The notes: a model not told the origin generated them from the letters alone. A DNA stretch of 64,000 nucleotides from an uncultured Candidatus Saccharibacteria bacterium (GCA_964507625.1 CAZDPR010000001.1:81499-145498), one strand, 5' to 3'; positions 1 to 38,089 are shown, counted from the stretch's first letter. Program-made: numbers and translations.

Positions 1-111
1 AGCAGATTCAAAATATTTGTCAAGTGTTTTCCTATATTGTCTAAAATCTCCAACAACGGTGCTCAATTTATTGAGGACTTTCGATAAAAATTAAATATTC
101 ATTTTGTCAAA

Positions 112-154
112 AATAAGTCTATTATGTTTAAAATAATAGACTTATTTATTTTTA
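112..154 (+). terminator. Intrinsic terminator-like hairpin (AATAAGTCTATTAT...ATAATAGACTTATT) followed by a T-run; it ends the transcript coming in from upstream of the window
   Basis: 14-bp inverted repeat followed by TATTTTT, read directly. Confidence 0.4.
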
Positions 155-223
155 AAAAATACTTATAAAATAATCTTATTTTTGTATTTATTCAAAATAC
201 TTGTCAATTTTTGTTGGAAATAC

Positions 224-252
224 TTGACAAATATTTTGAATTATGCTAACCT
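224..252 (+). promoter_or_regulatory. Extended -10 sigma70-like promoter P1: TTGACA (224-229), 17-nt spacer, TGcTAACCT (244-252). An upstream half-repeat AATACTTGTCAA lies at 196-207
   Basis: Motif read directly. Near-identical architecture recurs at 6598-6626 (TTGACA-17-TGaTAACAT). Confidence 0.5.
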
Positions 253-254
253 AT

Positions 255-660
255 GGGTACGAGCATGGGACAGATCATGTTCGGAGATCGCGAGAGAAAA
301 CAAAACTATCTGTCTCATTCAGGTAGTCACAATCTTCAAGTTAAGTTCCCCCGATATCAGCTCAGCGTACTGATATCAGGAATACTTAACTTGAACTCGA
401 TTTTGTTCTTTTGAGAGCCGGTTTATCGTTACGGCATGTAGGGTAAGTGGATCATAAAGGCTCCTCGAGGCCTCCGATCTGCGAATAGCTTGGGAATTAT
501 CACCCCAAGAGTTACAGGGTATGGTTCTGTGCGCACAGGATCATAAAGAACTCTGACCGACCACAACGATGAGGGGGCAAACGAGCTGATTACTCGTCTC
601 GTCTTGGTAACAAGACAAAATTGCTCCAATCGGAGAAGCGCCAATCGCGCGCTTCTCCTT
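255..660 (+). ncRNA. Candidate structured non-coding RNA (family unassigned), ~50% GC against ~33% background. Several nested hairpins, e.g. 343-391 GTTAAGTTCCCCCGATATCAG...CTGATATCAGGAATACTTAAC, 520-532 CTGTGCGCACAG, 601-616 GTCTTGGTAACAAGAC
   Basis: Sharp local GC jump in an AT-rich genome. Sits immediately downstream of promoter P1 and has no credible ORF. Flows directly into the first conserved cassette module. Confidence 0.35.
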
Positions 661-717
661 TCTATCAGGATCTCGAACTCTTTCGAGGTTCTGTAGAAAG
701 GTTGTTCTTTGAAAAAG
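632..717 (+). repeat. Cassette junction module copy 1: GC hairpin GGAGAAGCGCC...GGCGCTTCTCC plus T-run, conserved hairpin ATCTCGAA-CTCT-TTCGAGGT (670-689), CUGUAGAAA, GTTCTTTGAAAAAG (704-717)
   Basis: Recurrent module aligned by eye across 8 copies. Arms of the conserved hairpin show compensatory substitutions and position-conserved U-G wobbles on the + strand. Confidence 0.7.
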
Positions 718-768
718 TTTGGTTTGGTTATTTTAGTTTCTTTATGGAGATTAAAATAACCAAACCAG
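718..768 (+). repeat. Long perfect hairpin (17-bp stem TGGTTTGGTTATTTTAG/TTAAAATAACCAAACCA) directly 3' of GTTCTTTGAAAAAG. Homologous, with covariation, to the hairpin at 5683-5737
   Basis: Perfect inverted repeat. Compensatory changes relative to 5683-5737 (G->A paired with C->T; TTTTAG/TTAAAA -> TTTCAG/TTGAAA). Confidence 0.6.
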
Positions 769-982
769 AGACCTGATTGCTTTTTGCACAGGCCTCTCTC
801 TTCTCTTTTTTCTCATGCGTGCTTGGACAAACCCTAAGACTAGTCGTAGAACCTGAGGTCATATAAAACTTCATGATATCAGTGACTAGTATAGGAAGCC
901 GTAACTAGATTGATAAAATCTAGTGAAAACTAAATATATTTACTTGTTGAGTGAATACATTTAGATGTTTGTCCAAATCTTG

Positions 983-1095
983 CCAAGAATGAATTGTTAG
1001 TGTTTGTTAAACACGTATAATAACAGTTCATTCTTGGAAACAAGATTTTTTTATCAGGGTCTCAAATTTATTTGAGGTTCTGTAGAAAAATTCAT
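983..1095 (+). repeat. Cassette junction module copy 2 (divergent): hairpin CCAAGAATGAA...TTCATTCTTGG plus T-run, then conserved hairpin variant GTCTCAAAT-TTA-TTTGAGGT (1059-1077) and CUGUAGAAAAA
   Basis: The CGAA/TTCG to CAAA/TTTG double substitution preserves pairing, which is strong evidence for selection on RNA structure. Confidence 0.6.
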
Positions 1096-1119
1096 TTTCA
1101 AAAATTAAATAAACATAAA

Positions 1120-1398
1120 ATGAAAAACTTTAAAGGATTAACCGGTAGTGATGCAAAATTAGAGTTTGCATTGTGTGTATTACATGCAATACCTAATCAG
1201 AACACTGAGGAAATTACTCAGTTATGTCAAGAGGCTCGTGAAGCGGAGATTATTCCAGATCTTGATTTGGAAAAATTGAAAGCTGAAGCACTTGAGATTC
1301 TCCCAACTGCACAATTTTTTTACCCTACTGGTAAAGAAGCAGAAATGAGAAGGTTTCAAGATTTCCGAGACCGTATCCTTGCAATGGCAATGGAATAA
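1120..1398 (+). CDS. Hypothetical small cassette protein (93 aa from MKNFKGLTG...). The tracked ORF start at 1072 lies inside the conserved hairpin, so I moved the start to the ATG at 1120
   Basis: ORF track 1072..1398, internal ATG chosen. No recognisable domain. Confidence 0.4.
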   Translation: MKNFKGLTGSDAKLEFALCVLHAIPNQNTEEITQLCQEAREAEIIPDLDLEKLKAEALEILPTAQFFYPTGKEAEMRRFQDFRDRILAMAME

Positions 1399-1429
1399 AG
1401 GGTAGGTGATTCTAAAAAATCTACCCCTC

Positions 1430-1591
1430 ATACTCCGTTACCCCGTAAGGTAACTCCTCGCATTGGTGGCTAACAAAAATGTGGAGTATCTGTGGCACCT
1501 CTGATTACATCAGAAAAGCCACACCTGTCCTGGAATGTACTATTCCAGCTGATGAGTCCAAAAGGACGAAACAGGGTGTTCTTTGAAAAAG
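1430..1591 (+). repeat. Cassette junction module copy 3 (hammerhead variant): conserved stem UACUCC[GUUACC-CCGUAA-GGUAAC]...GGAGUA, hammerhead ribozyme, then GTTCTTTGAAAAAG (1578-1591)
   Basis: Block shared with 5540-5682. Same downstream motif and hairpin as the other modules. Confidence 0.7.
1520..1579 (+). ncRNA. Hammerhead ribozyme, type III topology. Stem III 5' strand CACCUGU, cleavage triplet GUC (1527-1529, predicted cut after 1529), stem I CUGGAAU-GUACU-AUUCCAG, core CUGAUGAG, stem II UCC-AAAA-GGA, then CGAAAC plus stem III 3' strand AGGGUG
   Basis: All invariant hammerhead core nucleotides (CUGAUGA, GAAA, GUC) are present in the correct order, with three helices of proper polarity. 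The second copy at 5610-5669 differs only in the stem I loop. Confidence 0.8.
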
Positions 1592-1593
1592 AG

Positions 1594-1647
1594 ATTGGTT
1601 TGATGAATTCAGTTTTTTCTGAAAATTGAATTCATCAAACCAAACGA
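1594..1647 (+). repeat. Long perfect hairpin (18-bp stem TTGGTTTGATGAATTCAG/TTGAATTCATCAAACCAA) immediately 5' of the next cassette ORF
   Basis: Perfect inverted repeat read directly. Same position as the hairpins at 718 and 5683. Confidence 0.55.
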
Positions 1648-1649
1648 TC

Positions 1650-1907
1650 ATGAAATATTTAATATTTGCAGCCTTGTCAACATTACTGTCTATCGGCGCT
1701 CTGATGACTTTTTCTCAAACAGATGAAAAATTCTCTCTGATATTTGGGGTTATATTTGGCGCAATGTCGATCAGTTGGTTGGTTAACTTTTATTACGACC
1801 GTAAAATAAATCGTCGTAATAAAAAAAGAATTAGCTTTGCTAATTCTTTTTTTATTGTGCTTGTTGCCAAAAATTTTCAAAAATCGTTACAAAAAATTCA
1901 TATATAG
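1650..1907 (+). CDS. Hypothetical small membrane protein (two predicted TM helices). Start moved to the MKYLIF ATG at 1650
   Basis: ORF track 1626..1907, hydrophobic stretches. The 3' end overlaps the convergent TrmB gene. Confidence 0.3.
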   Translation: MKYLIFAALSTLLSIGALMTFSQTDEKFSLIFGVIFGAMSISWLVNFYYDRKINRRNKKRISFANSFFIVLVAKNFQKSLQKIHI

Positions 1908-2628
1908 ATTTATTGGTAATAATAACAGATCTCAAACCTTTATCCCAAATGGTTATAGAAACATGATTTTTCCAAATTGAAATATTGAGGTTCGGGTTAA
2001 ATAGTGACTGGGGTAATGTACGGATCTCGCGTAACTTTGTTTTAGATCTCTTCTTCTCCTCCGCTGCTAATGGAGAATCTGACATAATCATACGAGCAGT
2101 AATATTCTTTTTTCTACGGAGATCGCCATAAGTCTTTAAACGTTCTCGAGCAACCGTAAATGTTTCTGTTGCCCCCGAAAAACGTAACACCTCGCCATAT
2201 TTTTCTTGTTCCAACGATCTAAAAAAAGTTTCTACAAAACCATCTTCACCTTCGAGATGTTCGACGTCAATTTGCTCGGAATTACCTCGTAAAGCAAAAA
2301 AGGCGCGCAGTTCAGGGAGAATGAGGTCAATCTCTAATTTCTTTTTAGTAACCAGGGCTTCCTCGTGTTCTATAAAATTTTTTAATTTTTCTGGCTTTTC
2401 AACATAAACCATTCGACGTTTACCAATAGTAGTTGTTCCCAGAACCCCTCGCTCAACGAGTTGCTCAATAGCAAGATGGATGGTAGACCGGGGAAGACCG
2501 GTTCCTTTTGCAATATCGGCAATATTTGAGAAACCATTTTTAAACAAGTAGAAAATACTTTGTTGTTCAGCAAAGTCAAAACCGATTTCTTTAAGAGAAT
2601 CTTTTAATTTTTTTGGTATTTCAATCAT
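1852..2628 (-). CDS. TrmB-family winged-HTH transcriptional regulator
   Basis: N-terminal HTH (FYLFKNGFSNIADIAKGTGLPRSTIHLAIEQLVERGVL) typical of the TrmB family. It is the only minus-strand gene inside the cassette array. Confidence 0.55.
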   Translation of the reverse strand: MIEIPKKLKDSLKEIGFDFAEQQSIFYLFKNGFSNIADIAKGTGLPRSTIHLAIEQLVERGVLGTTTIGKRRMVYVEKPEKLKNFIEHEEALVTKKKLEIDLILPELRAFFALRGNSEQIDVEHLEGEDGFVETFFRSLEQEKYGEVLRFSGATETFTVARERLKTYGDLRRKKNITARMIMSDSPLAAEEKKRSKTKLREIRTLPQSLFNPNLNISIWKNHVSITIWDKGLRSVIITNKSIYEFFVTIFENFWQQAQ

Positions 2629-2672
2629 GCTGTAAGTATAGCATTTTTATTTTAAAATGACAAATATTTTTG

Positions 2673-2704
2673 ACATTTATTAAAAATACATATAAATATC
2701 AATA
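2673..2704 (+). promoter_or_regulatory. Promoter-like TTGACA-17-TAAATA in the divergent AT-rich intergenic region between the TrmB gene and ORF 2750
   Basis: Motif read directly. Confidence 0.3.
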
Positions 2705-2749
2705 AAATAAATACTTTTTTAAAAAAGTATAACAAAAATCGTTGTTAAA

Positions 2750-2998
2750 ATGCTTGACTTATTAAAACTATTATGCTACAATGTTTTTAAGAAGATGAGG
2801 AATAACTATCCGCGAGATCCTGATTCTGTTGCTCTTTGTGAACTATTCGAAAGGAATATCCCCAGCATCATTTATAAAACGGAGATGGTGTTTGGAATAT
2901 TCCTTTCGAGGAGAAAGATTGGAAAGGCAGGTCCCTCTGCCGGTTCGGGAATTCCATGGACAGTTTTGAGCGTGCCACCGTTCAGACTCTTCGAGTAA
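2750..2998 (+). CDS. Hypothetical protein (82 aa)
   Basis: ORF track only. Confidence 0.25.
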   Translation: MLDLLKLLCYNVFKKMRNNYPRDPDSVALCELFERNIPSIIYKTEMVFGIFLSRRKIGKAGPSAGSGIPWTVLSVPPFRLFE

Positions 2999-3153
2999 TT
3001 ATTTGTTTTTACGAATAAGAACTTGATGTTGGTTTTTCAAACAAAATGGGCGGGTGAAGCAGTTCTGGTGGACGGAATCCTAGTATGGAAATTGGTAAAG
3101 GATTACGGTTAAGAAATCGTTCTCTTTTATTAAAGACCATAGTAAAGCTTCGG

Positions 3154-3244
3154 GAGAAGTGGGTGTTTTTAACAACCACTTCTCCTTTCTATCAGGATCT
3201 TAAATTTGTTTGAGGTTCTGTAGAAATATTTGTTCTTTGAAAAG
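3154..3244 (+). repeat. Cassette junction module copy 4: GGAGAAGTGG...CCACTTCTCC hairpin plus T-run, conserved hairpin ATCTTAAAT-TTG-TTTGAGGT (two U-G wobbles), CUGUAGAAA, GTTCTTTGAAAAG
   Basis: Alignment with the other copies. The arm substitutions here are tolerated only as RNA wobbles, which fixes the functional strand as +. Confidence 0.7.
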
Positions 3245-3317
3245 AGATGAAGTGAATATCTTGGATATTACCTTTTTAAACGTTTGTGTAGTATCCAGTA
3301 TATTCACTTCATCTTTA
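3241..3317 (+). repeat. Long hairpin (AGATGAAGTGAATAT...ATATTCACTTCATCT) 5' of the small ORF at 3330
   Basis: 15-bp perfect stem read directly. Confidence 0.5.
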
Positions 3318-3329
3318 AACCCATAAACT

Positions 3330-3488
3330 ATGTCCCAAAGGGAAGCACTTAAAGTAGCAGATATGTTGTTGGCCAAAAAAGGATTTAATCCTGACGGCAC
3401 CCCAAAAGGTAAGGGGCGGAAAAAGTCTCAGTCGTTCTTCGAAAGGAGGATGATCAAGACTGTCCCTATGGGTGGAAAGGTACGATAA
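3330..3488 (+). CDS. Small basic ORF (52 aa, MSQREALKVADMLLAKKGF...). Not in the ORF track because it is under 60 aa
   Basis: Correct cassette position just after the hairpin. Translated by hand. Confidence 0.2.
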   Translation: MSQREALKVADMLLAKKGFNPDGTPKGKGRKKSQSFFERRMIKTVPMGGKVR

Positions 3489-3695
3489 ACCTTTCCACCT
3501 GCATCCCTTGCAGGTTTTGACAGAGTCAAAGGGAAAATTCTAATCATCAGATCGATGTCGTTGTTGTCTATCCGTTTTACGAAAGTAAATGGTGAGCCAC
3601 AGGGAGCAGAACCTGATGAAATCATAACCAGTACGGTTGTGATCTTTATCCAAATCATGAAGCAGTTCGTGGTTTGGTAGAGAAACAGTCAAAAA

Positions 3696-3747
3696 ATGAG
3701 TTTGGTGAAATGAGGTAATTCTAGAAGCCTCACTTCACCAAACTCAC
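3696..3747 (+). repeat. Long perfect hairpin (ATGAGTTTGGTGAAATGAGG...CCTCACTTCACCAAACTCAC) ending 6 nt before the start codon at 3753
   Basis: 20-bp stem read directly. Confidence 0.5.
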
Positions 3748-3752
3748 TCACT

Positions 3753-4055
3753 ATGACTAATATGTTCGTTTCATTATCAGGATGGCAAACAGGTCGCGAA
3801 ATCGTGGAACACGATGGAAAACTGTATTTTGAGGTGGCAGAACAAGGCCACTGCAGTATCTGTCAGTCGAGGATTGATCACGTACGTGCCGTAGTTGCAC
3901 GCAAGAAATTGCAGGTAACTTATGGTCATTTACTAGATCGATTTCCGCGCGATGCACGCACCCTGTGGGTAGGATTAGAGAAACCGAAGTCAGAGATGAA
4001 TAGCGGGGAGGTGAAAGCCTTTTTCCGCGAAAACTTAGAACTTCCGATACTCTAA
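3753..4055 (+). CDS. Hypothetical cassette protein (100 aa). A C-x2-C motif suggests a possible small zinc-binding fold
   Basis: ORF track. Followed immediately by the conserved 3' element at 4070. Confidence 0.4.
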   Translation: MTNMFVSLSGWQTGREIVEHDGKLYFEVAEQGHCSICQSRIDHVRAVVARKKLQVTYGHLLDRFPRDARTLWVGLEKPKSEMNSGEVKAFFRENLELPIL

Positions 4056-4069
4056 CTTGTCGTATGTCT

Positions 4070-4260
4070 CCGGACCGGTTTCACACTACCCAATAGTACG
4101 GGTAGCCGGTTGGCAACAGAAAGTAAGTAATGCCTGCTGTGAAGCATGTATATACTGAAAAAGTGAAGCGGAGAAGTGAATGCTAAAACATTCACTTCTC
4201 ATTTTTATCAGGATCTCGAACTCATTCGAGGTTCTGTAGAAATATTTGTTCTTTGAAAAG
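4070..4260 (+). repeat. Cassette junction module copy 5, full length: 3' element CCGGACCGG..CTACCC-AATAGTAC-GGGTAG-CCGGTTGGCAACAG, terminator hairpin GAGAAGTGAATGC...TCACTTCTC plus T5, conserved hairpin ATCTCGAA-CTCA-TTCGAGGT, CUGUAGAAA, GTTCTTTGAAAAG
   Basis: Over 90% identical to 4684-4874. The 5' 55 nt also match 5404-5459. Confidence 0.75.
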
Positions 4261-4261
4261 A

Positions 4262-4312
4262 GTTTAATTGGTTACATAAGTTTTTTATGAAGATTTATGT
4301 AACCAATTAAAC
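4262..4312 (+). repeat. Long perfect hairpin (GTTTAATTGGTTACATAA...TTATGTAACCAATTAAAC) ending 10 nt before the ATG at 4323
   Basis: 18-bp stem read directly. Confidence 0.5.
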
Positions 4313-4322
4313 AAATAACACC

Positions 4323-4676
4323 ATGTCAGCTTTAAACATACATACACTGATTATTCTGAGAACACAATTTTCTAACCGATTTGAAGGTCCTAAGCCTGCG
4401 TCCCTTACCTATAGTGCAGTTTATTATGGAAATGATAGGGCATATGTTGAATATTACAATGAGAATCTTGTTGATGAAGTGGCTACACAGTGTGATTTTT
4501 GGGAGTGCGTAAACAGATATTGCGAAGAGTTTTTTATTAATGTTAAGGTTCTGGATGAGGTAGATGAAAAAGAAAAAATTGAAGAACATTTAACAAAATT
4601 AATAACTGACAAGATCGTGAAATTAGCCGGTAGACCACTCGGATCATCATTTCGAAATATTAATAAAGATTCTTAA
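4323..4676 (+). CDS. Hypothetical cassette protein (117 aa)
   Basis: ORF track. Flanked by modules on both sides. Confidence 0.4.
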   Translation: MSALNIHTLIILRTQFSNRFEGPKPASLTYSAVYYGNDRAYVEYYNENLVDEVATQCDFWECVNRYCEEFFINVKVLDEVDEKEKIEEHLTKLITDKIVKLAGRPLGSSFRNINKDS

Positions 4677-4683
4677 TACAATT

Positions 4684-4874
4684 CCGGACCGGTCTCACAC
4701 TACCCAATAGCAAGGGTAGCCGGTTGGCAACAGAAAGTAAGTAATACCTGCTGCGAAGCATGTATATACTGAAAAAGTGAAGCGGAGAAGTGAATGCTAA
4801 AGCACTCACTTCTCATTTTTATCAGGATCTCGAACTCATTCGAGGTTCTGTAGAAAGACTTGTTCCTTAAAAAG
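4684..4874 (+). repeat. Cassette junction module copy 6 (full length, near-identical to copy 5)
   Basis: Direct comparison with 4070-4260. Confidence 0.75.
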
Positions 4875-4963
4875 AGAACGAAAGCAGCTAGCAACTTATT
4901 AGATCCGGTTGATAAAACCCCACGATAAGGCGTGGAAAACTGGCATTCAGCTGGTCCGGAATT

Positions 4964-5395
4964 TTGCTTATGGAGAATATTATTCTTAATAAGACGGAGG
5001 ATTCTTCTTTCATCACTATCTCTAAAGACTTCATACCTCGATTGACTTACTTTGTTGTCAAAACATGGGACAGTTATTGGGGTGGTTATCATGAGGTCGG
5101 AGTGAAAACTCTTACCTTAATGGATAAGGATTGTGGTGTTACTCTAAAAGATCTCAAAAAGGCTATTTCGAGAAGAGGATTAGGTGCAAAGATTGTAAAA
5201 GAAAGTCATTCACATAATGGCGATGAACAATCTTTTTACTGGTCTCTTAAGGAGTGGTTCCCTGTCTATAAGATAGGTAATGAGTATTATGTCTATGCTT
5301 TTGACAAAGCTCAGTTTGGTGGTGTTGGAATTACTTTTCAACATGTAAACCATCGGGTAGCGGAAGAGCTGGATATTTTAGAGCAATTTTACTAG
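4964..5395 (+). CDS. Hypothetical cassette protein (143 aa)
   Basis: ORF track. Confidence 0.4.
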   Translation: MLMENIILNKTEDSSFITISKDFIPRLTYFVVKTWDSYWGGYHEVGVKTLTLMDKDCGVTLKDLKKAISRRGLGAKIVKESHSHNGDEQSFYWSLKEWFPVYKIGNEYYVYAFDKAQFGGVGITFQHVNHRVAEELDILEQFY

Positions 5396-5403
5396 AAGAT
5401 CCT

Positions 5404-5682
5404 CCGGACCGGTTTCACACTACCCAATAGCACGGGTAGCCGGTTGGCAACAGAAAGTACCTTGCTTGCGAGGGAAAAAGTGAAAAGGGAATCAGGTTGT
5501 GCCCTCAATAAGGAAAGACAACCACCATATATTGCTCCGTTACCCCGTAAGGTAACTCCTCGCATTGGTGACTAACAAAAATGTGGAGTAAGCGGACGTT
5601 GAACAACATCCGCACCTGTCCTGGAATGGAGTATTCCAGCTGATGAGTCCAAAAGGACGAAACAGGGTGTTCTTTGAAAAAG
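5404..5682 (+). repeat. Cassette junction module copy 7 (hammerhead variant): 3' element CCGGACCGG...GGCAACAG, then divergent linker, conserved UGCUCC[GUUACC-CCGUAA-GGUAAC]...GGAGUA block, hammerhead, GTTCTTTGAAAAAG (5669-5682)
   Basis: Shares its 5' part with copies 5 and 6 and its 3' part with copy 3. Confidence 0.7.
5610..5669 (+). ncRNA. Hammerhead ribozyme, type III, second copy. GUC at 5618-5620 (predicted cut after 5620), stem I CUGGAAU-GGAGU-AUUCCAG, CUGAUGAG, UCC-AAAA-GGA, CGAAAC-AGGGUG
   Basis: Identical core to 1520-1579. Only the stem I loop (GGAGU versus GUACU) and the distal stem III differ. Confidence 0.8.
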
Positions 5683-5737
5683 TTTGATTTGGTTATTTCA
5701 GTTTCTGTATGGAAATTGAAATAACCAAATCAAATGA
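5683..5737 (+). repeat. Long perfect hairpin (TTTGATTTGGTTATTTCAG...TTGAAATAACCAAATCAAA). A covarying homolog of the 718-768 hairpin
   Basis: 19-bp stem. Paired compensatory substitutions relative to copy 1. Confidence 0.6.
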
Positions 5738-6031
5738 ATATGAGTATTAAGCGCGCACGAGATCGTATTTGCCGAAAGGCATAGAGATTATCAAAAATCA
5801 CCCTTACACTCTTAAGGTTTTGTCATTGACATGAGTATTGGGTTTTGTCCCCATCTTACCTAAAAGATGGAGAGCCATGAAAAAGCAGATTTTCATATGA
5901 GTAAACATATTAAAAAATCCACCAAATTGTTGTGTACAGGCGTTTGGTTGGCAGGAGTTATTTTTTTATTTATTCCACGCGGAGCCAGAGTCTCTGTCGG
6001 GTTTATTTAAAAAAAAAGATGTTCTGTCATT

Positions 6032-6120
6032 GAGAAGTGTTTGCCTGGGTGAACACTTCTCTTTTCTATCAGGATCTCGAACCACTTCGAGGTTCTGCAG
6101 AAATAGTTGTTCTTTAAATC
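6032..6120 (+). repeat. Cassette junction module copy 8: GAGAAGTGTT...AACACTTCTC hairpin plus T-run, conserved hairpin ATCTCGAA-CCAC-TTCGAGGT, CUGCAGAAA, GTTCTTTAAATC
   Basis: Alignment with the other copies. Confidence 0.65.
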
Positions 6121-6597
6121 ACAAAAAACTTTAAAATGGAAACTAAAAAACCAAGGGATAGACTTCGAACTATCTAATGAGTTCTTACGCAGAACTCACC
6201 CTTTTAGTCGCTTATCAGTTCGATATTCCTGAAACGATATATGGAAGTGGCAACATCATGATGCTAGCTTAATTGTTAATTAGGTTAGAAGATTGGTGAG
6301 TTTTCGCCGGTTTAAGTGCCGGGATAGTCCCTCTCACTATAAATGTCTAGATCCGTCAAGGGTTGAGGACATAATGAGAGATGCCAAACTGATAGGGGTT
6401 ACGGAAATTAACCTCGCTCTATAAGTTTCCATGTACTGGGTTGTACAGTAAGCGAAATGAGTAAATTTTCCGTTTTTGTTCACTAAACCTTTTATTTGAT
6501 AGATTGGAAAGTTGTTAACTTTCCAATCATCATAAAAGTTTTATTAAATTCTCTAAAGAAGGCCTAATATAGGTTTTTTATTGTATTTATTTTGTAC

Positions 6598-6626
6598 TTG
6601 ACAAAAAAATTAAAATATGATAACAT
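6598..6626 (+). promoter_or_regulatory. Extended -10 promoter P2: TTGACA (6598-6603), 17-nt spacer, TGaTAACAT (6618-6626). A paralog of P1, including the shared TACTTGACAAA context
   Basis: Direct motif comparison with 221-252. Confidence 0.5.
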
Positions 6627-6633
6627 GTATTTA

Positions 6634-6755
6634 AGTCAGTGGTGGAATTTGTTATCAAAATGACAAACTATTCCTGTTAGGAGAAAAGTCCACACAAATC
6701 TCCCTGTTAGGGGGTAAAAACAAAATCTAAAACCACCCTTCCGGGTGGTTTTTTA
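6634..6755 (+). promoter_or_regulatory. ~120-nt leader transcript from P2 ending in an intrinsic terminator (ACCACCC-UUCC-GGGUGGU plus U6 at 6732-6755), 50 nt upstream of the 799-aa gene. Candidate attenuator, riboswitch-like leader or small RNA. Contains the repeated CCUGUUAGG(A/G)G motifs
   Basis: Promoter, leader, terminator and gene in sequence. Upstream GUGGUGG (6642-6648) could alternatively pair with the terminator 5' arm. Confidence 0.4.
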
Positions 6756-6806
6756 CTGATATTATTTTTTATAGGAATCCGTTTCTTATGATATAATAAA
6801 GTTATT

Positions 6807-9206
6807 ATGAAAGAATCGTTTCTACCTGCAAAAAAAACAAATAATAATGAAATATTAATTACTCTAGAATATATTCCTGGAATGCAACCACAAGAAATAA
6901 TATTGGAAAAGTTTACCCCTGAGGAGCAAAAGGTAATAGAAGATCGCAAGGAAATATTAAAAACAATCGTAGGGGCTGTTTCAGGTAATTACTCTATTCC
7001 CGTTGTATTAGGGTTGCCTGAAAGGGTGGGAGATTCAGGTTGGCGTCATGTAAAGTTAAAAGATGGACGTGAATTCATACAACTGAATGCTCATGATATT
7101 TTAACCAAAGAAATGGATTTTTTACGGTTTGTAACAGCTCATGAGGCTGGACATCAAGCAATCACTAAATGGGATTTTATCTTTGACGATCCGGAACTTA
7201 CAGAACTATATACAAATACAACAGGATTTGCATATTTATTAAATTGCACAGAAGATCCTCGGGATAATAATTATGTTGCAGAAGTTTATGAGCCGTTTAC
7301 AGAAGTAATGAAATTAGCATATCGTTTACAAGAAGAATACACAGAAGATATGTTAATTGAAATAAAAAAGAAAATGGGGTTTATTCCAAGACATATATTA
7401 GCAGGTATGGAATATATTCAGCAATGGTACCGTGAATCTCAAACATTACCTTTTGCGATTAATTCTGATTTACCAGGTGATGTGTATGAAGTAGTTCAAA
7501 AAACATTACCATACGCAAAAGATTCATGGTGGAGATTTCCATCCAAAGAAGAGGTTGTTCGTAATCCAGACATTATTCATAAATATGCTCGCATATATTT
7601 TGATATTAATTTAAAAAAAATTTGGCCAGAATTTGCAAAATTAGTAGAAAAAGATAAAAAAGATCAACAGGTACAACAAATGTTGAAAAAGATGAGTCGC
7701 GAACAAAAAGATCAAGAAATTGAGTTGCCTCCTTGGCTTCAAGAGATTTTAAACGAAGAGGATCAAGAGTTTTTAAAAAAAATTTTGCGTGAATATTTGA
7801 AAATGCTCAAAAAGGCAGAACAGGCAGATAAAGAAGAATTGTTGAGTGATCCTGAAAAAAAACAAGAAGATTCAGATTCAGATTTAGAAGAAGGAGAAGA
7901 GGGGGTGGAGACAGGCCCAAACAACAACCCTTCTCCAGAAGAGTCTGATACAGAGAATACAGAGAATACAGGGAATACAGAGAATACAGAGAATACAGAG
8001 AATACAGAGAATACAGAGAATACAGAGAATACAGAGAATACAAAGAATACAGAGAATACAGAGAATACAGATTTACAGAAGAAAGATATTCCGTTTGATT
8101 TAGATCAATTGCCAGATGATTTAAAAGATAAATTAAGTGAAGGTATAGATAAGAATATGGACCCAGGAGAACGTGAAGAGTTAGAAAAAGAGTCAGAAAA
8201 AGCAATAAAAGAGTTAGACGAAGAGATTATTAAAAAAATACAAGACCAAACGAAAAACGATACAAAGAATTATAATGAATCAAAAAAAAGTAATAATGAA
8301 GAGGTTAAAAAAGAAGTTGAACTAAAAGATAAAAGAAAAGAAATTGAAAAAAAACTAAAAACATTTGAAGAAGGACTTGATGAATTGTTCAAATTGAAAG
8401 AAGATTTCAAAAAACAAACTGAAGTGGTTCCTGATAATAAATACCAAAAAGCGCGTCAAGAAAACTTTGAAATAATAAAAAAACTAGAAAATGATTTACG
8501 TATGATTTTTAAGAGTAGACGAGAAGGGTTGACTCAAAAAAATCTTCCCTCTGGTTCACGTATTAACATGTTTAAAAGAATTCAAGAAAAAGCACGTGGG
8601 ATTAGTGTAGTGGAATCACGAGCGTATGAACGAAAAATTTTACCTCAAGAAAAAGATTATGCAATTACGTTATTAGTAGATCTTTCCGGTTCAATGAGCG
8701 ATAAAATAGAAGAAACATTTGCCGGAGTTGTTGCAGTTACTGAATCATTGCATCGACTAGGAATCAAAACAGAAATTTTAGGGTTTAACCATCTCATGTT
8801 TGAATTTAAGAAATTTAATGAAAAAATGACAAGTAAAATACAAGATAAGATGGGTGAAATGATTAATGCAGTAAGTCAACCGGGTGCAAATGGTAATAAT
8901 GATGGTTATGCAGTACTAATTGCATCAGAAAGATTAAAAAAGACTAATGAAAAAGAAAAGATTTTAATTGCTTTTTCAGATGGTCAACCCAATCCTTCTG
9001 GTGAGTATAGTGGTGATAAATATGAGCTAACTAATGTGATTAGAAAAACTAAAGCAGATAACACTATAAAATTAGTAGGAGTTGGTTTAGGAGAAGGAAC
9101 TGATCATGTGTCGCATTATTATCCAAAAAGTGCTGCAAATATTCCCATAAATGATTTATCGAAACAATTAGCAAGAGTGATACGTGAAGCAATTGAAGAA
9201 AATTAA
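6807..9206 (+). CDS. Three-part protein: N-terminal HExxH zinc metallopeptidase-like domain (HEAGH at 7140-7154), central acidic coiled-coil linker with an (ENT)n repeat, and C-terminal von Willebrand factor A domain with the MIDAS motif DLSGS (8679-8693) and the AFSDGQP motif
   Basis: Motifs read from the translation. This architecture (putative metallopeptidase plus vWA, as in DUF2201-type proteins) is the usual partner of MoxR AAA+ ATPases. Confidence 0.7.
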   Translation: MKESFLPAKKTNNNEILITLEYIPGMQPQEIILEKFTPEEQKVIEDRKEILKTIVGAVSGNYSIPVVLGLPERVGDSGWRHVKLKDGREFIQLNAHDILTKEMDFLRFVTAHEAGHQAITKWDFIFDDPELTELYTNTTGFAYLLNCTEDPRDNNYVAEVYEPFTEVMKLAYRLQEEYTEDMLIEIKKKMGFIPRHILAGMEYIQQWYRESQTLPFAINSDLPGDVYEVVQKTLPYAKDSWWRFPSKEEVVRNPDIIHKYARIYFDINLKKIWPEFAKLVEKDKKDQQVQQMLKKMSREQKDQEIELPPWLQEILNEEDQEFLKKILREYLKMLKKAEQADKEELLSDPEKKQEDSDSDLEEGEEGVETGPNNNPSPEESDTENTENTGNTENTENTENTENTENTENTENTKNTENTENTDLQKKDIPFDLDQLPDDLKDKLSEGIDKNMDPGEREELEKESEKAIKELDEEIIKKIQDQTKNDTKNYNESKKSNNEEVKKEVELKDKRKEIEKKLKTFEEGLDELFKLKEDFKKQTEVVPDNKYQKARQENFEIIKKLENDLRMIFKSRREGLTQKNLPSGSRINMFKRIQEKARGISVVESRAYERKILPQEKDYAITLLVDLSGSMSDKIEETFAGVVAVTESLHRLGIKTEILGFNHLMFEFKKFNEKMTSKIQDKMGEMINAVSQPGANGNNDGYAVLIASERLKKTNEKEKILIAFSDGQPNPSGEYSGDKYELTNVIRKTKADNTIKLVGVGLGEGTDHVSHYYPKSAANIPINDLSKQLARVIREAIEEN
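7950..8071 (+). repeat. In-frame 9-bp tandem repeat (GAGAATACA) of about 13.5 units encoding (E-N-T)n. One unit is GGGAATACA and one is AAGAATACA
   Basis: Read directly. The minus-strand ORF 7807..8205 is an artefact of this repeat. Confidence 0.85.
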
Positions 9207-9634: not shown

Positions 9635-11500
9635 ATGGAAAAAATACCAAGTAAAAAAACAAATGAACCGATTATTGAGACGGATAAATCTGTTTCTTAT
9701 TTAGGAGTAAATCTGTTAAAAGCAAAAAATCGTGAAGGTGCAGTAGGTCCAGAAAAATATAAATTTTATATCAATGATAAATTTCGATTAGAGTTACAAC
9801 GTGATATTGCAACAGCGTGGGCACTTAATGAACCTTATTTGTTTATAGGTGGGACCTCTATTGGAAAAACAACAACAGTTAATAAAATGTGCGCAGAATT
9901 AGGTTATGAAATGCATTATTATAATTGTACAGGAAATACAGAAGAAATGGATTTATTAGGAAGATATATACCCAATGTTCATAAAAAAACCCCTGAAGAT
10001 CCTGAGTATATTTTCCAACCTGGTCCGGTTACTCGAGCCTTAATGCAAGAGTCAGATAAGGTGAAAGTGCTTTTTCTTGATGAAATTAATGTTTCTCAAC
10101 CAAAAGTTCTGTCACTTTTGCATGACGTTATGGATTCATTAAAAACAAACACTGAATATACACTCAACGTAAAAGATGGTGAAAAAATTCCTACAGACCG
10201 AGAAAAAACAAAAATAATTGCCGCTGCAAACCCGGTATCTGGAGACATGACACATGCAAGTCCACTTTCACTAGCAACTATTCGACGTTTTACTATGCAG
10301 CGAGTTCCAGATACCTTACCTGATGAGGCTTTAAAAAATACGATTTTTAGTAAGTGTGGATTTGGGTCAATTCATGCAATTCCAGCTCCTGAGTCAAGTT
10401 ATCGTTATTCAAACCAAAAAATATTAGATAGTCGTCAATTGTCCCGTATTCCAGGAATGTCATTTATTTTGGATAAATATTTTGAATTTCATAAACATGC
10501 CTCACTTTTGTTGGATAATGGTCAAATCGGGGAAGATGATCGAGTGCAACCATTTAAGTTTGATGCAAACGAAGATGTGGACAGGGTAATTAGATTTGTT
10601 AAACGCTTCTATAATGGTGACATTAATACGGTAATGCAGGATGCAATTAAATATATTTATTTAAATCGATTATCAAATCCTAAGGATCATACAAAATTAT
10701 TAGAAAAAGCTCGAGAAATATACTATGAACCGCCTAAGGGTCAACGAAAAGGGTTAGATGATCCTCTAGATTTAGAGAATATATTATCTCTGCATGAAAT
10801 TGAAACTCTCCTACCTGATAATTTTTACGGTCCTCGTGTTGTAGAAAAAATGCTTAAAACAAGATTAAAAAAAGAAGATATACCTCCAATTCATTTAACA
10901 ATGGAAGAAGTGTTAAAAATAAAAGAAACAAATGGATCATTGATATTAAAATATAATTTTGATGCAGAAGGTAAGCCGTTAACCATTAAAAATATGGAAG
11001 AATTAGACCTTATTAATTTTGCTCCTGGAGTTAGTCGGTTTCTTAAAAGAGATCCTTTTTATACTGATGATACAGAACTGAAAAAAAAGGCAACTTGGCA
11101 AATTGTTTGGGATGTTCCCGAATCAGCAGGATTAGATATTACAAAACAGTTCGAAGTTACTGGTCATTTATACGATAAAAATACAGAAGAAATTATAAAT
11201 TCAAGTGGTGACGAAGAACGGATTACAGAGCTTAAAGATATTCATAAAAACCAAGAAAGATCAGGTATTTTTGAAACTGCTCAAGAAGTACTGTATCGTA
11301 TGGCTTTGTTTAATAAAAAAAATGCGCCTAAAGTACTGTATCCAGACGTCTTTGTTACTACTCAAAATAGAAACGGACTAGGAAAGCCGGTAAATGTTGG
11401 CCATGGAGACAATGGTATTGTAGTTAATGGGTTTGATGAAAATACAGGTAGTCCAAAAAGAATTAGTACAGTAGTTTGGGAACTACCTCCTAATAGTTGA
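9635..11500 (+). CDS. MoxR-family (AAA_5 clade) AAA+ ATPase with a ~370-aa C-terminal extension of unknown function. Walker A GGTSIGKTT (9848-9874), Walker B LFLDE (DE at 10079-10084), box VII-like DEINVSQPKVLSLLHDVMD, sensor-1 IIAAANP, arginine TIRRF
   Basis: The motif string FLDEINxxxPKxxSxLLxxMxx followed by AxANP is diagnostic of MoxR/CbbQ/NorQ-type ATPases. Gene is adjacent to a vWA-MIDAS protein. Confidence 0.7.
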   Translation: MEKIPSKKTNEPIIETDKSVSYLGVNLLKAKNREGAVGPEKYKFYINDKFRLELQRDIATAWALNEPYLFIGGTSIGKTTTVNKMCAELGYEMHYYNCTGNTEEMDLLGRYIPNVHKKTPEDPEYIFQPGPVTRALMQESDKVKVLFLDEINVSQPKVLSLLHDVMDSLKTNTEYTLNVKDGEKIPTDREKTKIIAAANPVSGDMTHASPLSLATIRRFTMQRVPDTLPDEALKNTIFSKCGFGSIHAIPAPESSYRYSNQKILDSRQLSRIPGMSFILDKYFEFHKHASLLLDNGQIGEDDRVQPFKFDANEDVDRVIRFVKRFYNGDINTVMQDAIKYIYLNRLSNPKDHTKLLEKAREIYYEPPKGQRKGLDDPLDLENILSLHEIETLLPDNFYGPRVVEKMLKTRLKKEDIPPIHLTMEEVLKIKETNGSLILKYNFDAEGKPLTIKNMEELDLINFAPGVSRFLKRDPFYTDDTELKKKATWQIVWDVPESAGLDITKQFEVTGHLYDKNTEEIINSSGDEERITELKDIHKNQERSGIFETAQEVLYRMALFNKKNAPKVLYPDVFVTTQNRNGLGKPVNVGHGDNGIVVNGFDENTGSPKRISTVVWELPPNS

Positions 11501-11670: not shown

Positions 11671-11701
11671 AAAAAAATACACCGTACGGTGTATTTTTTA
11701 T
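11671..11701. terminator. Bidirectional intrinsic terminator AAAAAAATACACCGTACGGTGTATTTTTT. Serves the convergent rny gene
   Basis: Hairpin plus flanking A/T runs. Confidence 0.6.
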
Positions 11702-13218
11702 CGTGCGTATTCAATAACTCGGTTTTCGCGAATGACGGTGATTTTAATTTCCCCTGGATAACGGAGATCGCGTTCAATTTTTACTGCCATATCACGCGCA
11801 ATGCGGCGTGCCTGGAGATCGTTTAATTGTTCTGGGTGAACAAATACTCTGATTTCTCGTCCTGCCTGGAGAGCATATGATTTGGTTACTCCTTGAAAGG
11901 TGTTTGCAAGTGCTTCGAGTTCGCGTAATCGTTTGAGGTAGTTTTCAAGGGTGTCACGTCGCGCACCAGGTCGTGCACCACTGATCATGTCACAGGTTTG
12001 TACAATGATTGCCTCTAATGATTCGTGTGGGTATTCATCATGGTGACTGCGCATACCAATAATTACCCGCTCATCTACTCCAAATTTTTGGAGAATTTTT
12101 ATTCCAATTTCTACATGGGTTCCTTCGAATTCGTGATCGAGCGCTTTTCCAATATCGTGAACCAATCCTGCAAATTTTGCGATATAAGGATCAGCGCCGA
12201 TTTCGCTTGCCACCATTTCACAGAGATGTGCTACCTCTAGGCTGTGTTTCAAAACATTTTGTCCATAGCTGGTACGGAAATGGAGTCGTCCAAGAATTGC
12301 AACGACCCGGGGATCGATTGTGAATATACCACATTCGTAGACGGCTTCCTCACCTTTTTTCTTCACAATTTCATTAACTTCAGATTGTGCTTTTTCTACA
12401 AATTCTTCAATGCGAGCAGGTTGGATTCTTCCATCCTTGATCAGATTTTCCAAAGCAACTTTTGCAATTTGTCGTCGAATTGGGTCAAAACAAGAAATAG
12501 TAATTTCGTTTGGAGCATCATCAATGATGAGTTCAACTCCCGCCATTCGTTCAAAAGTACGAATATTGCGACCTTCTTTTCCAATGATCTGGCCTTTAAT
12601 ATCATCGTTTTCGAGTTTTACAGTAGTTGTAGTGAGTTCTGTTGCGGTAGAAGAAGCGAGACGATTAACTGCATTAGCGAGGATTACCTTTGCTCGTTCT
12701 TTTAATCGTTCTTCTCCAAATAGTTCAAGTTTTTGCATGCGTGATTGGAGATCTTCATTGTTTTTTCTTTCAATATCATTAAAAAGATGTTCAAGTGCTT
12801 CTTGACTCGTCATGCCTGCAATTTTTTCTAACGTTTGTGTTCTAGTTTTTACGAGATCTTCATTCTTTTCTTTCAATATTCTTACTTCATCCATATGTAA
12901 TTTTAACTTTTCATAATCACGATCAAGGTCTGATTGTCGTTTATCGAGTAATTGTTCCTTACGTTCGATATGTTCTTTAGTTTTTGAGAATTCTTTTTCT
13001 CGTGTTTGTTCTAATTCTCGAGATTGAGCGAGGAGTTTTTCAGATTTTATCTCTGCTTCGGTAATAATTTTTTGCGCATCAGTTCGCGCCTGTAAGAGTA
13101 TTTCTTGCACATCGGTTTCCAGTGATTTTTTCTGAAAACGAGCAATGAATATTCTCATTACGTATCCAATTCCAATCCCAATAATTAGACACAAAACAAT
13201 GCTCAGTGTAAGTGTCAT
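11698..13218 (-). CDS. rny: Ribonuclease Y (N-terminal TM helix, coiled coil, KH domain, HD domain)
   Basis: KH motif IGKEGRNIRTFERMAGVELIID and HD motif HSLEVAHL...VHDIGK in the expected order. 506 aa. Confidence 0.85.
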   Translation of the reverse strand: MTLTLSIVLCLIIGIGIGYVMRIFIARFQKKSLETDVQEILLQARTDAQKIITEAEIKSEKLLAQSRELEQTREKEFSKTKEHIERKEQLLDKRQSDLDRDYEKLKLHMDEVRILKEKNEDLVKTRTQTLEKIAGMTSQEALEHLFNDIERKNNEDLQSRMQKLELFGEERLKERAKVILANAVNRLASSTATELTTTTVKLENDDIKGQIIGKEGRNIRTFERMAGVELIIDDAPNEITISCFDPIRRQIAKVALENLIKDGRIQPARIEEFVEKAQSEVNEIVKKKGEEAVYECGIFTIDPRVVAILGRLHFRTSYGQNVLKHSLEVAHLCEMVASEIGADPYIAKFAGLVHDIGKALDHEFEGTHVEIGIKILQKFGVDERVIIGMRSHHDEYPHESLEAIIVQTCDMISGARPGARRDTLENYLKRLRELEALANTFQGVTKSYALQAGREIRVFVHPEQLNDLQARRIARDMAVKIERDLRYPGEIKITVIRENRVIEYAR

Positions 13219-21757: not shown

Positions 21758-21771
21758 TAACTTATCAAATT

Positions 21772-22479
21772 ATGAAAACAAACATTTTTAATTTCATACT
21801 CATCGGAACACTCCTAATGACAGGGGTTGTTTCTGCGTTTGAGGAACCATTATTTTTACCTGGGGCAACAGGACCGAGCCCAATTGATACTGGTGCAACT
21901 ACACAGATAAAACAAGGTAATTTTTGGGCGCGATCATTAAAAGCCGGTTTTAATCAGGTTCGCGCAGAACTCCCGGCAATACTTTCAGGTTTTATTATTG
22001 CTGATACGCGTGCAGTAGCACCATATGGATATTTTATAACAGCGGTCCTTCCAGGAAATAGTGGTCAGTTTCTTTCTCAGTTACGATTAGGGTCTCCGGT
22101 AAATAATTTATTTAATGCAGTTTTCACAAATCGTGCCCCTGCAACATTGGATTTAGTAGGTCGTGGTAGCGCTGGATCACAAAAATCTCGTGATGCAGTT
22201 GCTTTTCTTGCAGACCCTGCGGTTTGTACTGAACATGTAAACATGATCACCAATACCCCCGCATTTCATTTTTGGAGTGATTATAATAGTGATTCTGCAG
22301 ATATTTTGGCACGACAGATTCAATTGTCAGGAGGTAATCCTGGAGCAGGAAAAGTATTACTATCGGTTGATAATCAAGGAAATGCAACCTGGGGAACAGT
22401 AATAGTTGATTCATTAGGAAATCCTCAGTACCAAAAAAGTTCATCAATTGTAGCGACAGGTCAAACACTCTGTCCATAA
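21772..22479 (+). CDS. Secreted paralog family member A (signal peptide MKTNIFNFILIGTLLMTGVVSA)
   Basis: Shares its 5' ~80 bp and the conserved block ADILARQIQLSGGNPGAGKVLLSVDNQGNATWGT with the next two genes. Confidence 0.55.
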   Translation: MKTNIFNFILIGTLLMTGVVSAFEEPLFLPGATGPSPIDTGATTQIKQGNFWARSLKAGFNQVRAELPAILSGFIIADTRAVAPYGYFITAVLPGNSGQFLSQLRLGSPVNNLFNAVFTNRAPATLDLVGRGSAGSQKSRDAVAFLADPAVCTEHVNMITNTPAFHFWSDYNSDSADILARQIQLSGGNPGAGKVLLSVDNQGNATWGTVIVDSLGNPQYQKSSSIVATGQTLCP

Positions 22480-22485
22480 TGTATT

Positions 22486-23445: not shown

Positions 23446-23455
23446 TATGTGTATT

Positions 23456-27392: not shown

Positions 27393-27484
27393 ATAATAAT
27401 GATTATAGCATAAAATTCATCTAACTTATGAAATACTTGACAAATATAAATAATAATGCTATTATTATTTCAAATTATTAAATA

Positions 27485-38032: not shown

Positions 38033-38089
38033 AAATCAACATTAATGGTTTTTTGGTTTATCTTACAAATTAAGGTATACTCAGTATAT

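Follow-up and report, generated by a model that had tools for sequence, protein, structure and literature searches.

The locus and its two hammerhead ribozymes

We analysed a stretch of 64,000 nucleotides (hereafter the window) from an uncultured Candidatus Saccharibacteria bacterium (GCA_964507625.1, CAZDPR010000001.1:81499-145498), which opens with an array of small open reading frames (ORFs) punctuated by structured RNA elements, among them two hammerhead ribozymes. Region 1-6200 comprises two transcription units: unit 1, with hammerhead 1, runs from a promoter at 224-252 into the 3′ end of a convergent regulator gene, near 1850-1900, and unit 2, with hammerhead 2, from a promoter at 2754-2782 to a terminator-like hairpin at 6178-6198. 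The original prediction, made from the sequence of this stretch alone, had placed both ribozymes on one precursor started at the promoter at 224; this cannot be maintained, as the convergent regulator gene (1852-2628) and the second promoter split the array. The ORFs between the junctions are small (13-141 codons), and of the nine junctions in the window two hold a hammerhead and seven hold another element, termed here module A, in line with the earlier proposal that a second module fills the same slot.

Both hammerheads are complete and of type III; they were read directly from the sequence at 1521-1577 and 5612-5668 (+ strand), where they had been predicted, and are listed as follows:

1522-1577, + strand: hammerhead 1, type III (RF00008, 41.2 bits; minimum-energy fold; family covariation); predicted cut C1529/C1530
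5613-5668, + strand: hammerhead 2, type III (RF00008, 41.2 bits; orthologue in locus L164, 49.5 bits); predicted cut C5620/C5621

In both copies, CACCUGUC, the 5′ strand of stem III, is followed by stem I (CUGGAAU-N5-AUUCCAG), CUGAUGAG, stem II, which reads (G)UCC-AAAA-GGA(C), and CGAAAC-AGGGU. The topology is that of type III, with stem I capped by a 5-nt loop, stem II capped by AAAA and stem III open toward the flanks. The core elements C3-A9, G12-A14, A15.1-U16.1 and C17 are all there in both copies, as are CUGAUGA and GAA, and the cleavage triplet is GUC in each. C17 lies at 1529 in copy 1 and at 5620 in copy 2, which gives the same predicted scissile bonds as those proposed before. There are two occurrences of the exact core CTGATGAG-N10-CGAAAC in the 64 kb, and none of 100 shuffles contains it.

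A search with the Rfam type III model (RF00008, Hammerhead_3), which the original prediction had put forward as a check, matched both copies end to end in E-value mode (E 1.7e-6 per copy), but the score of 41.2 bits lies under the curated gathering cutoff of 48.5 bits, and a default Rfam scan of the window at gathering thresholds reported tRNA only and missed both hammerheads. The sub-cutoff score is due to the longer stem I with its loop and to the short loop 2, and the core is not responsible. When folded with 30-70 nt of flank, each copy has the canonical three-way junction as its minimum-energy fold (z -7.4 and -8.0), set between an upstream hairpin (P0) and an unpaired GUUCUUUGAAAAAG followed by a hairpin of 23-25 bp.

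The two copies are paralogues and are 94% identical. It had been suggested that they differ only in the stem I loop and in distal stem III bases; the first difference was seen, while the second lies in fact in the upstream P0 hairpin. Because the differences are confined to loop 1 and P0, the window pair alone gives no covariation evidence, and the earlier argument that these two copies demonstrate maintained helices had to be replaced by one drawn from 50 other family members.

The hammerheads belong to a covarying family

A metagenome scan with the pattern CTGATGAG-N9-13-CGAAAC-N4-8-GTTCTTTGAA returned 39 loci with a matching hammerhead and a downstream box (see below), and after structural filtering these loci and the window held 59 distinct hammerheads. 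Each family locus was sampled through one hammerhead-plus-box hit; extra hammerheads within the sampled loci, and those found through the regulator described below, behave alike.

For the covariation count, an alignment of 52 distinct copies was scored on the hammerhead structure. In this alignment, 98.7% of cells are paired, whereas slid-partner controls pair at 31-51%. Compensatory change was found in 13 of the 15 pairs (stem III 3/4, stem I 7/7, stem II 3/4), with 210 double-change cells observed compared to 62.6 in shuffles, and none of 500 shuffles reached the observed value. Two pairs, A15.1-U16.1 and G10.1-C11.1, are invariant (52/52) and all the others vary. The catalytic core is invariant in the 52 members apart from the permitted U/C at N7, and the base at the cleavage site is C, U or A across the family (GUC, GUU, GUA) and never G (GUG). 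Loop positions U16 and G17 and the adenines of loop 2 are conserved in at least 90% of the family, as would fit a tertiary contact between loops 1 and 2 of the kind that gives fast cleavage at physiological Mg2+; loop 1 of the window copies has one inserted base. Six members exceed 48.5 bits, namely five at 48.9-50.2 and the orthologue of copy 2 in locus L164 at 49.5.

An independent route to the family was offered by the regulator gene that lies between the two units:

1852-2628, - strand: TrmB-like winged-helix regulator (Pfam PF01978), convergent with unit 1 and divergent from unit 2

This regulator has 64 homologues, and those with names come from metagenome-assembled genomes (MAGs) of Patescibacteria, Paceibacterota or Minisyncoccia. 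Five homologue neighbourhoods (83-47% identity) show the same arrangement of the regulator, a gene-free upstream gap of 450-2000 nt and then divergent small ORFs. Hammerheads and/or module A were present in four of these five arrays, which were reached through the regulator protein alone: one hammerhead and one module A in L164, module A in L165, one hammerhead and two module A copies in L166, and two hammerheads and one module A in L168. By position, and with the same flanking repeats (D6 and D11, see below), the hammerhead of L164 is orthologous to window copy 2. Uncompensated stem-breaking changes in orthologues had been named as a refutation of the original prediction; in the L164 copy the changes are compensated, and stem I is preserved through two double substitutions (CUGGAAU/AUUCCAG to UCGGAAU/AUUCCGA).

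A scan of viral contigs with the specific stem I pattern gave 0 matches. With the generic stem II core, phage contigs yielded more than 120 matches; the box follows none of the 124 phage-contig hammerheads that share the stem II, and as all these matches lack the box, the hammerhead family is not a phage one. Type III hammerheads with loop 1 UGUGUG and loop 2 GAAA as in the family, and with no box, were seen at L007 (~3140-3200) and at other IMG/VR loci (L002-L121); such boxless hammerheads with family-like loops may come from phages of Patescibacteria. In summary, both window elements are bona fide type III hammerheads and belong to a Patescibacteria-specific subfamily, and on their sequence they are very probably active.

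Junctions share a fixed order of elements

Across loci, the junctions follow a fixed order of P0 hairpin, slot, GUUCUUUGAA box, RNA hairpin of ~25 bp and ORF. The original prediction that the hammerheads sit inside conserved junctions between small ORFs, followed by a box and a long hairpin, was thus seen at both copies. Of 61 hammerhead copies, 54 have a P0, whose end lies a median of 6 nt upstream of the cut site; a P0 of at least 7 bp occurs in 56% of copies compared to 12% of shuffles. P0 as a general intrinsic terminator was rejected, since it is terminator-like, with a U-rich tail, at module A junctions only and not at hammerhead junctions.

The slot may contain a type III hammerhead, an element resembling twister-P1, module A or at least two further motifs. 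The twister-P1-like (RF03160) elements score 63.5 bits in L133 and 55.5 and 45.6 bits in L136, under the cutoff of 67.2, with E-values from 3e-12 to 5e-7. They lie directly before the box, at 4427-4485 in L133, 2138-2203 and 3275-3335 in L136 and ~1720-1783 in L161; none was found in the 64-kb window, so that they are confined to related loci. L133 combines about six hammerheads and one twister-like element within 6.5 kb. Of the two further slot-fillers, one consists of a hairpin and CUUCUACCAAAG...CUUUGG.GGAGCAAUCC (L131/L155, three copies, and L145 at 12715) and the other contains ...UAGGAGUCUGAA... (L129 at 4896 and L130 at 254), with coordinates in L129-L155 given on the hammerhead strand; neither matched Rfam.

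The box is conserved after 73-90% of the family hammerheads, and GUUCUUU lies within 8 nt of stem III in about three quarters of those hammerheads that were not search hits. In the window, GTTCTTTGAAAAAG directly follows both hammerheads (1578-1591 and 5669-5682), and box sites, each with its hairpin, lie at 704-717, 1578-1591, 3232-3245, 4248-4261, 4862-4875, 5669-5682 and 6109-6118, and also at 2831-2913. The hairpin starts a median of 4 nt past the box, has arms with a median of 25 bp and differs in sequence at every junction, and the ATG lies a median of 62 nt past the box. With a scoring that weighs G.U and A.C equally, the post-box hairpins contain 108 G.U compared to 21 A.C (p 3e-15), and this excess implies that the hairpins are selected as RNA on the ribozyme strand and not as DNA palindromes.

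Units of box plus hairpin also lie directly after sigma-70-type promoters, in the leader of window unit 2, in L164, in L167 (twice) and in L168, and are therefore regarded as a 5′-proximal element that marks RNA 5′ ends. From the positions of these sites, what they appear to share is nearness to an RNA 5′ end, either primary or made by cleavage. As the slot always precedes the box and the ~25-bp hairpin, which also mark primary 5′ ends, its function would be tied to a defined RNA 5′ end. Other roles considered for the box, namely a -35 element, a Shine-Dalgarno or anti-Shine-Dalgarno partner, an upstream pairing partner and an attC R′ site, were rejected because none fits the sequences.

A micro-ORF, M(E/Q)TKKPRDR(L/I)RTI, lies downstream of module A in the window (6136-6177) and downstream of a hammerhead in L164 (~6904-6945, - strand), so that module A and the hammerhead are interchangeable before one downstream unit. 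Compared to L164, the window has an extra box-bounded segment (5683-6118), which, together with the context of the micro-ORF, implies that cassettes are gained and lost at junctions.

Layout of the two transcription units

Each unit opens with a non-coding leader of roughly 400 nt. The features of unit 1 are:

224-252, + strand: unit 1 promoter, TTGACA (224-229), 17-nt spacer, TGC-TAACCT extended -10; read from the sequence
632-717, + strand: junction 1, with P0 632-658 (terminator-like), module A 660-698 and box 704-717; repeat D2 and structural census
718-772, + strand: long hairpin after the box, 90% identical to 5683-5732 (D10); no ORF next, non-coding cassette 718-1030
1049-1105, + strand: junction 2, with module A 1049-1087 and a degenerate box; upstream of ORF 1120-1398
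1433-1488, + strand: D11 element upstream of hammerhead 1, a conserved module of the 3′ untranslated region (3′-UTR); 98% identical to 5535-5590, also in L164
1492-1522, + strand: P0 of hammerhead 1, GUGGC...GCCAC with inner UCUGAU/AUCAGA stem; just 5′ of the hammerhead
1578-1591, + strand: GUUCUUUGAAAAAG box, directly after hammerhead 1
1595-1643, + strand: 23-bp hairpin, ending 6 nt short of the ATG of ORF 1650-1907

The -10 hexamer of unit 1 is too weak to be listed by a consensus scan. A promoter-like repeat (D19) at 27430-27461 (+), 84% identical to 217-248, lies upstream of ORF 27485-27988. The unit 1 leader (250-631, +, ~380 nt, non-coding) differs from that of unit 2 and contains a long hairpin at 337-393, followed by GTTCTTTTGA at 404-413. 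The features of unit 2 are:

2754-2782, + strand: unit 2 promoter, TTGACT-17-TACAAT with TG; conserved in L123 and L164
2790-3152, + strand: unit 2 leader, non-coding, with degenerate box 2831-2840 and 31-bp conserved hairpin 2843-2913
3153-3312, + strand: junction, with P0 3153-3185, module A 3187-3225, box 3232-3245 and hairpin 3246-3312; ORF 3330-3488 next
3616-3750, + strand: junction with diverged module A, P0 3616-3640, module A 3644-3682, degenerate box and hairpin 3697-3750; ORF 3753-4055 next
4171-4312, + strand: junction, with P0 4171-4200, module A 4203-4241, box 4248-4261 and hairpin 4262-4312; ORF 4323-4676 next
4785-4875, + strand: junction, with P0 4785-4814, module A 4817-4855 and box variant GTTCCTTAAAAAG 4862-4875; ORF 4970-5395 next
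5535-5590, + strand: D11 element upstream of hammerhead 2; repeat search
5592-5614, + strand: P0 of hammerhead 2, GCGGA...UCCGC; covaries with P0 of copy 1
5669-5682 and 5683-5735, + strand: box and 25-bp hairpin downstream of hammerhead 2; fold in context
6032-6118, + strand: junction, with P0 6032-6061, module A 6064-6102 (CAG variant) and box GTTCTTTAAA 6109-6118
6136-6177, + strand: 13-codon micro-ORF METKKPRDRLRTI, conserved in L164; terminator-like hairpin 6178-6198 next

The diverged junction at 3616-3750 was picked up by the structural census, whereas the repeat search did not detect it. The unit 2 leader has counterparts in L164 (7640-7960, - strand) and L123 (5130-5660); its 5′ region is conserved and the remainder is variable in length. 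Aligned with these counterparts, the leader hairpin at 2843-2913 shows compensatory changes relative to both, and the leader has no Rfam match. The D11 element could serve as a 3′-UTR module or as an accessory of the hammerhead junction. A further repeat, D6 (CCGGACCGGUUUCACACUACCC...GGGUAGCCGGUUGG), lies at 4068-4125, 4682-4739 and 5402-5459 (+), in each case starting 5-12 nt past the stop of a cassette ORF; L164 has a conserved copy (about 7215-7270, - strand), and the element is probably a structured 3′-UTR module.

Among 40 cassette proteins from the family, three matched Pfam and one matched PHROG. Several small families of cassette proteins recur between arrays and represent orphan families linked to arrays of this kind. 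The 52-aa protein of ORF 3330-3488 (+) resembles L151_2714, with FFER... and TPMG motifs in common. ORF 3753-4055 (+) encodes a 100-aa protein that contains a CSICQSRIDHV motif and is similar to L159_298; an orthologue of it is found in L164.

Elsewhere, the window has the content of an ordinary chromosome, with genes for RNase Y, NusA, RecJ, MetRS, pyruvate kinase and a beta-CASP/RMMBL nuclease. In five genomes (window, L123, L164, L165 and L166), the RNase Y gene (11698-13218, - strand, in the window) is found a few kb or less from the regulator and array, a proximity that may reflect synteny alone or a functional connection with RNA processing. ORF 6807-9206 encodes a 799-aa VWA/CobT_C-domain protein and includes, at 7921-8098 (+), a 9-nt tandem repeat of ~14 copies that encodes an (E-N-T)n tract; the next-but-one gene downstream (9635-11500) encodes a MoxR-like AAA_5 ATPase. 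At 21769-24085 (+), three adjacent paralogous genes share a near-identical N-terminal segment that resembles a signal peptide (repeats D3 and D5).

Module A

Module A consists of P0, CUUUA with a bulged U, a covarying stem of 11-15 bp and UAGAG. The seven window copies, all on the + strand, are at 660-698, 1049-1087, 3187-3225, 3644-3682, 4203-4241, 4817-4855 and 6064-6102. In an alignment of 21 distinct copies with the apical part removed, pairing is 99.4% and 11 of 15 pairs show compensatory change, a figure that is circular in so far as copies were selected for a paired inner stem. The two outer pairs, which were not selected for, covary as well (C-G 11 / U-A 10, and U-A 16 / A-U 2 / C-G 2 / U-G 1). 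The U-A and A-U pairs adjoining the bulged U show little or no variation, and neither does the G of UAG.

No match at E <= 10 was found in window 1-7000 with models for twister, twister-sister, pistol, hatchet, hairpin, hepatitis delta virus (HDV)-like, Varkud satellite (VS), glmS and hovlinc ribozymes, and loci rich in module A gave no Rfam match at E <= 0.5. The module A pattern had 0 matches in the viral-contig scan, and in a genome scan L123 was the one informative locus. A match in L122 (Ignavibacteria MAG) was treated as chance, as it has no array features. The possibility that module A is a decayed hammerhead (CUG-UAGAAA compared to CUGAUGA...GAAA) was rejected, since only UAGAG is conserved across loci.

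Since it occupies the same slot as hammerhead and twister ribozymes, module A is a candidate processing motif. P0 at module A junctions is trailed by a U-rich tract, with three of the seven flagged as terminator-like, and module A may be a partial terminator plus hairpin; it may also coincide with one of the untested or negative candidates of Weinberg et al. 2015.

Discussion

The best reading of these features is self-cleavage into cassette RNAs that would have a 5′-OH and a structured 5′ end. We assign a probability of about 0.8 to the proposal that the hammerheads cut the polycistronic RNAs of the two sigma-70-type units and thereby insulate cassette RNAs with structured ends, a proposal that builds, at the level of sequence, on the sequence, topology and covariation of the hammerheads, the conserved grammar of their flanks, the selection of the hairpins as RNA and the linkage to the regulator. 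Each hammerhead would fold co-transcriptionally and, following hammerhead chemistry, would cut after C1529 or C5620. The upstream product would then end in the P0 hairpin, a tail of ~6 nt and a 2′,3′-cyclic phosphate. The downstream product would start with a 5′-OH nucleotide that forms the first pair of stem I, so that it would have no single-stranded 5′ end, and would consist, in order, of the ribozyme body, the single-stranded box, the ~25-bp hairpin and the small ORF. By analogy with the synthetic insulator RiboJ, the cassette RNAs would be insulated, with structured ends resistant to exonucleases, and the decay and translation of each cassette would be uncoupled from those of its neighbours.

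Several points weigh against this proposal. The window copies fall short of the Rfam gathering cutoff, their loop 1 (GUACU and GGAGU) has one inserted base relative to the family consensus UGUGUA, so that their loop-loop tertiary contact could be weaker, and stem III is short (5 bp and a bulged 3-bp extension). Two cassettes (718-1030 and 5736-6030) have no ORF, for which the term mRNA is not apt. In addition, the window encodes, at 38045-39469, a beta-CASP/RMMBL nuclease of the RNase J type. In the case of the glmS ribozyme, RNase J1 degrades the 5′-OH products, and hence cleavage could destabilize the downstream RNA.

This last point leads to an alternative that we consider unlikely, in which cleavage serves as a decay or regulatory switch, either by handing the 5′-OH product to an RNase J-type exonuclease or through conditional folding with P0 and the flanks, so that a cassette is tuned down or gated. 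Besides the nuclease, the synteny of RNase Y with the array in the five genomes named above, the overlap of the P0 3′ arm with the stem III extension in copy 1 and the regulator dedicated to the locus would fit such a switch. However, the 5′ end of the product would be fully paired in a stem I of 7-8 bp, followed by a 25-bp hairpin, which makes it a poor substrate for a 5′ exonuclease; the active fold is the minimum-energy fold in context for both copies, and the family alignment shows no aptamer-like conserved domain adjoining the core. A considerably less probable fate of the released cassette RNAs is their joining into circles by an RtcB-type ligase, or splicing to one another, as in retrozymes or viroids. 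The ribozyme sites do bracket segments of 0.4-1 kb, and circularization or splicing was raised as a possibility by Perreault et al. (PMC3088659), who nevertheless sought such products and found none; in the window, the two hammerheads lie in different units and the remaining junctions hold module A, and no ligase was identified in this analysis. The predicted ends, a 5′-OH and a 2′,3′-cyclic phosphate, are those that RtcB requires.

Co-oriented small orphan ORFs separated by palindromes, which are unique in sequence and conserved in shape beside a short conserved GTT... box, recall a DNA-level cassette system of the integron/attC type or another hairpin-dependent recombination, in which the palindromes recombine and the hammerheads are passengers, and the cassette-sized, box-bounded indel between the window and L164 would be expected of it. 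We regard this as very improbable, because the hairpins behave as strand-specific RNA (108 G.U compared to 21 A.C) and lack the R″/R′ consensus and extrahelical bases, the box GTTCTTT does not conform to GTTRRRY and is placed outside the stem, no integron integrase adjoins the arrays in the window or in the neighbourhoods of the regulator homologues, the ribozymes are under strong RNA-level constraint, and homologous recombination between repeated junctions can explain the indel. The sub-threshold Rfam score could also point to a chance motif or an inactive, decayed relic, but this is hardly credible in view of the E-value of 1.7e-6 with 0 occurrences expected by chance, the invariant core, and the compensatory evolution in 52 copies and in a direct orthologue.

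Self-cleavage of this kind has precedents. Perreault et al. 2011 (PMC3088659) described multiple bacterial hammerheads that flank single genes in polycistronic RNAs, and showed that clustered hammerheads cleave in vitro and in vivo, proposing processing into single-gene mRNAs. The junction arrangement had been called unusual in the original prediction, which is not so in itself given that report; what is unusual is the fixed grammar and module A as a slot-filler. The present hammerheads share with those bacterial and prophage ones the catalytic core, the NUH site, the three-helix junction and capped stems I and II, and with the clusters the presence of several copies between co-oriented genes and the proposed single-gene processing. 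Unlike the prophage clusters, the present locus is chromosomal and conserved in Patescibacteria, with one PHROG match among 40 proteins, and is linked to a divergent TrmB-like regulator; its P0/box/25-bp hairpin grammar also sets it apart from the 124 phage-contig hammerheads with the same stem II. Taken by themselves, the present hammerheads add ordinary new members to a thoroughly known class, in a kind of context known since 2011.

RiboJ combines the type III sTRSV hammerhead with a hairpin of 23 nt, and its mRNA decays faster when left uncleaved (PMC7536230). Hammerhead, hairpin and gene start follow each other in the same order here, and after cleavage, which is predicted in our case, the mRNA keeps the ribozyme body at its 5′ end. 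In contrast to the synthetic RiboJ, with its hairpin upstream of the ribosome binding site, the present arrangement is natural, has a conserved 10-nt single-stranded box between ribozyme and hairpin, a longer hairpin (~25 bp) unique in sequence at each junction, and P0 on the upstream product. The resemblance is functional and not by descent. A protein-based parallel is the early region of phage T7, where RNase III cuts intergenic hairpins to give single-gene mRNAs that are stabilized by their terminal hairpins. Intergenic hairpins that split a polycistronic RNA into single-gene pieces are proposed here as well, whereas in T7 a protein enzyme cuts and the hammerhead and twister junctions are predicted to cleave themselves.

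According to PMC4604424 and PMC6765202, Weinberg et al. 2015 used ribozyme-rich gene neighbourhoods to discover twister-sister, pistol and hatchet, and in ~90% of hatchets a non-conserved P0 hairpin lies a few nt 5′ of the cleavage site (PMC4604424). Such neighbourhoods resemble the present loci in that hammerhead and twister take equivalent positions near small genes of no known function, and hatchets in that P0 lies a few nt 5′ of the cleavage site; they differ in that the present slot is defined to the nucleotide by the downstream box and hairpin and is also filled by module A. In our text searches, no paper connected hammerheads to Patescibacteria or to bacteria of the candidate phyla radiation (CPR). 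The slot grammar, the 5′ unit of box plus hairpin, the link to a TrmB-like regulator and leader, and module A appear to be undescribed, with the motifs of Weinberg et al. 2015 standing outside this comparison.

The roles of bacterial hammerhead and twister ribozymes are largely elusive (PMC6765202), and the present locus is an unusually clean natural case in which two unrelated ribozyme classes and a hairpin are swapped at one position defined to the nucleotide. It offers a natural counterpart of the engineered RiboJ insulator and a source of concrete test constructs. By the logic behind twister-sister, pistol and hatchet, module A and the at least two further slot-fillers are candidate processing motifs. 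We tentatively raise the possibility, to which we give rather less than even odds, that module A is a new RNA-processing element, either a new class of self-cleaving ribozyme or the site of a dedicated endonuclease, and that the locus would then represent an undescribed system found throughout the Patescibacteria. If this is true, the regulator, the leader RNA, the ribozyme-punctuated array of orphan ORFs and the 5′ box and hairpin would together form one undescribed RNA-processing system.

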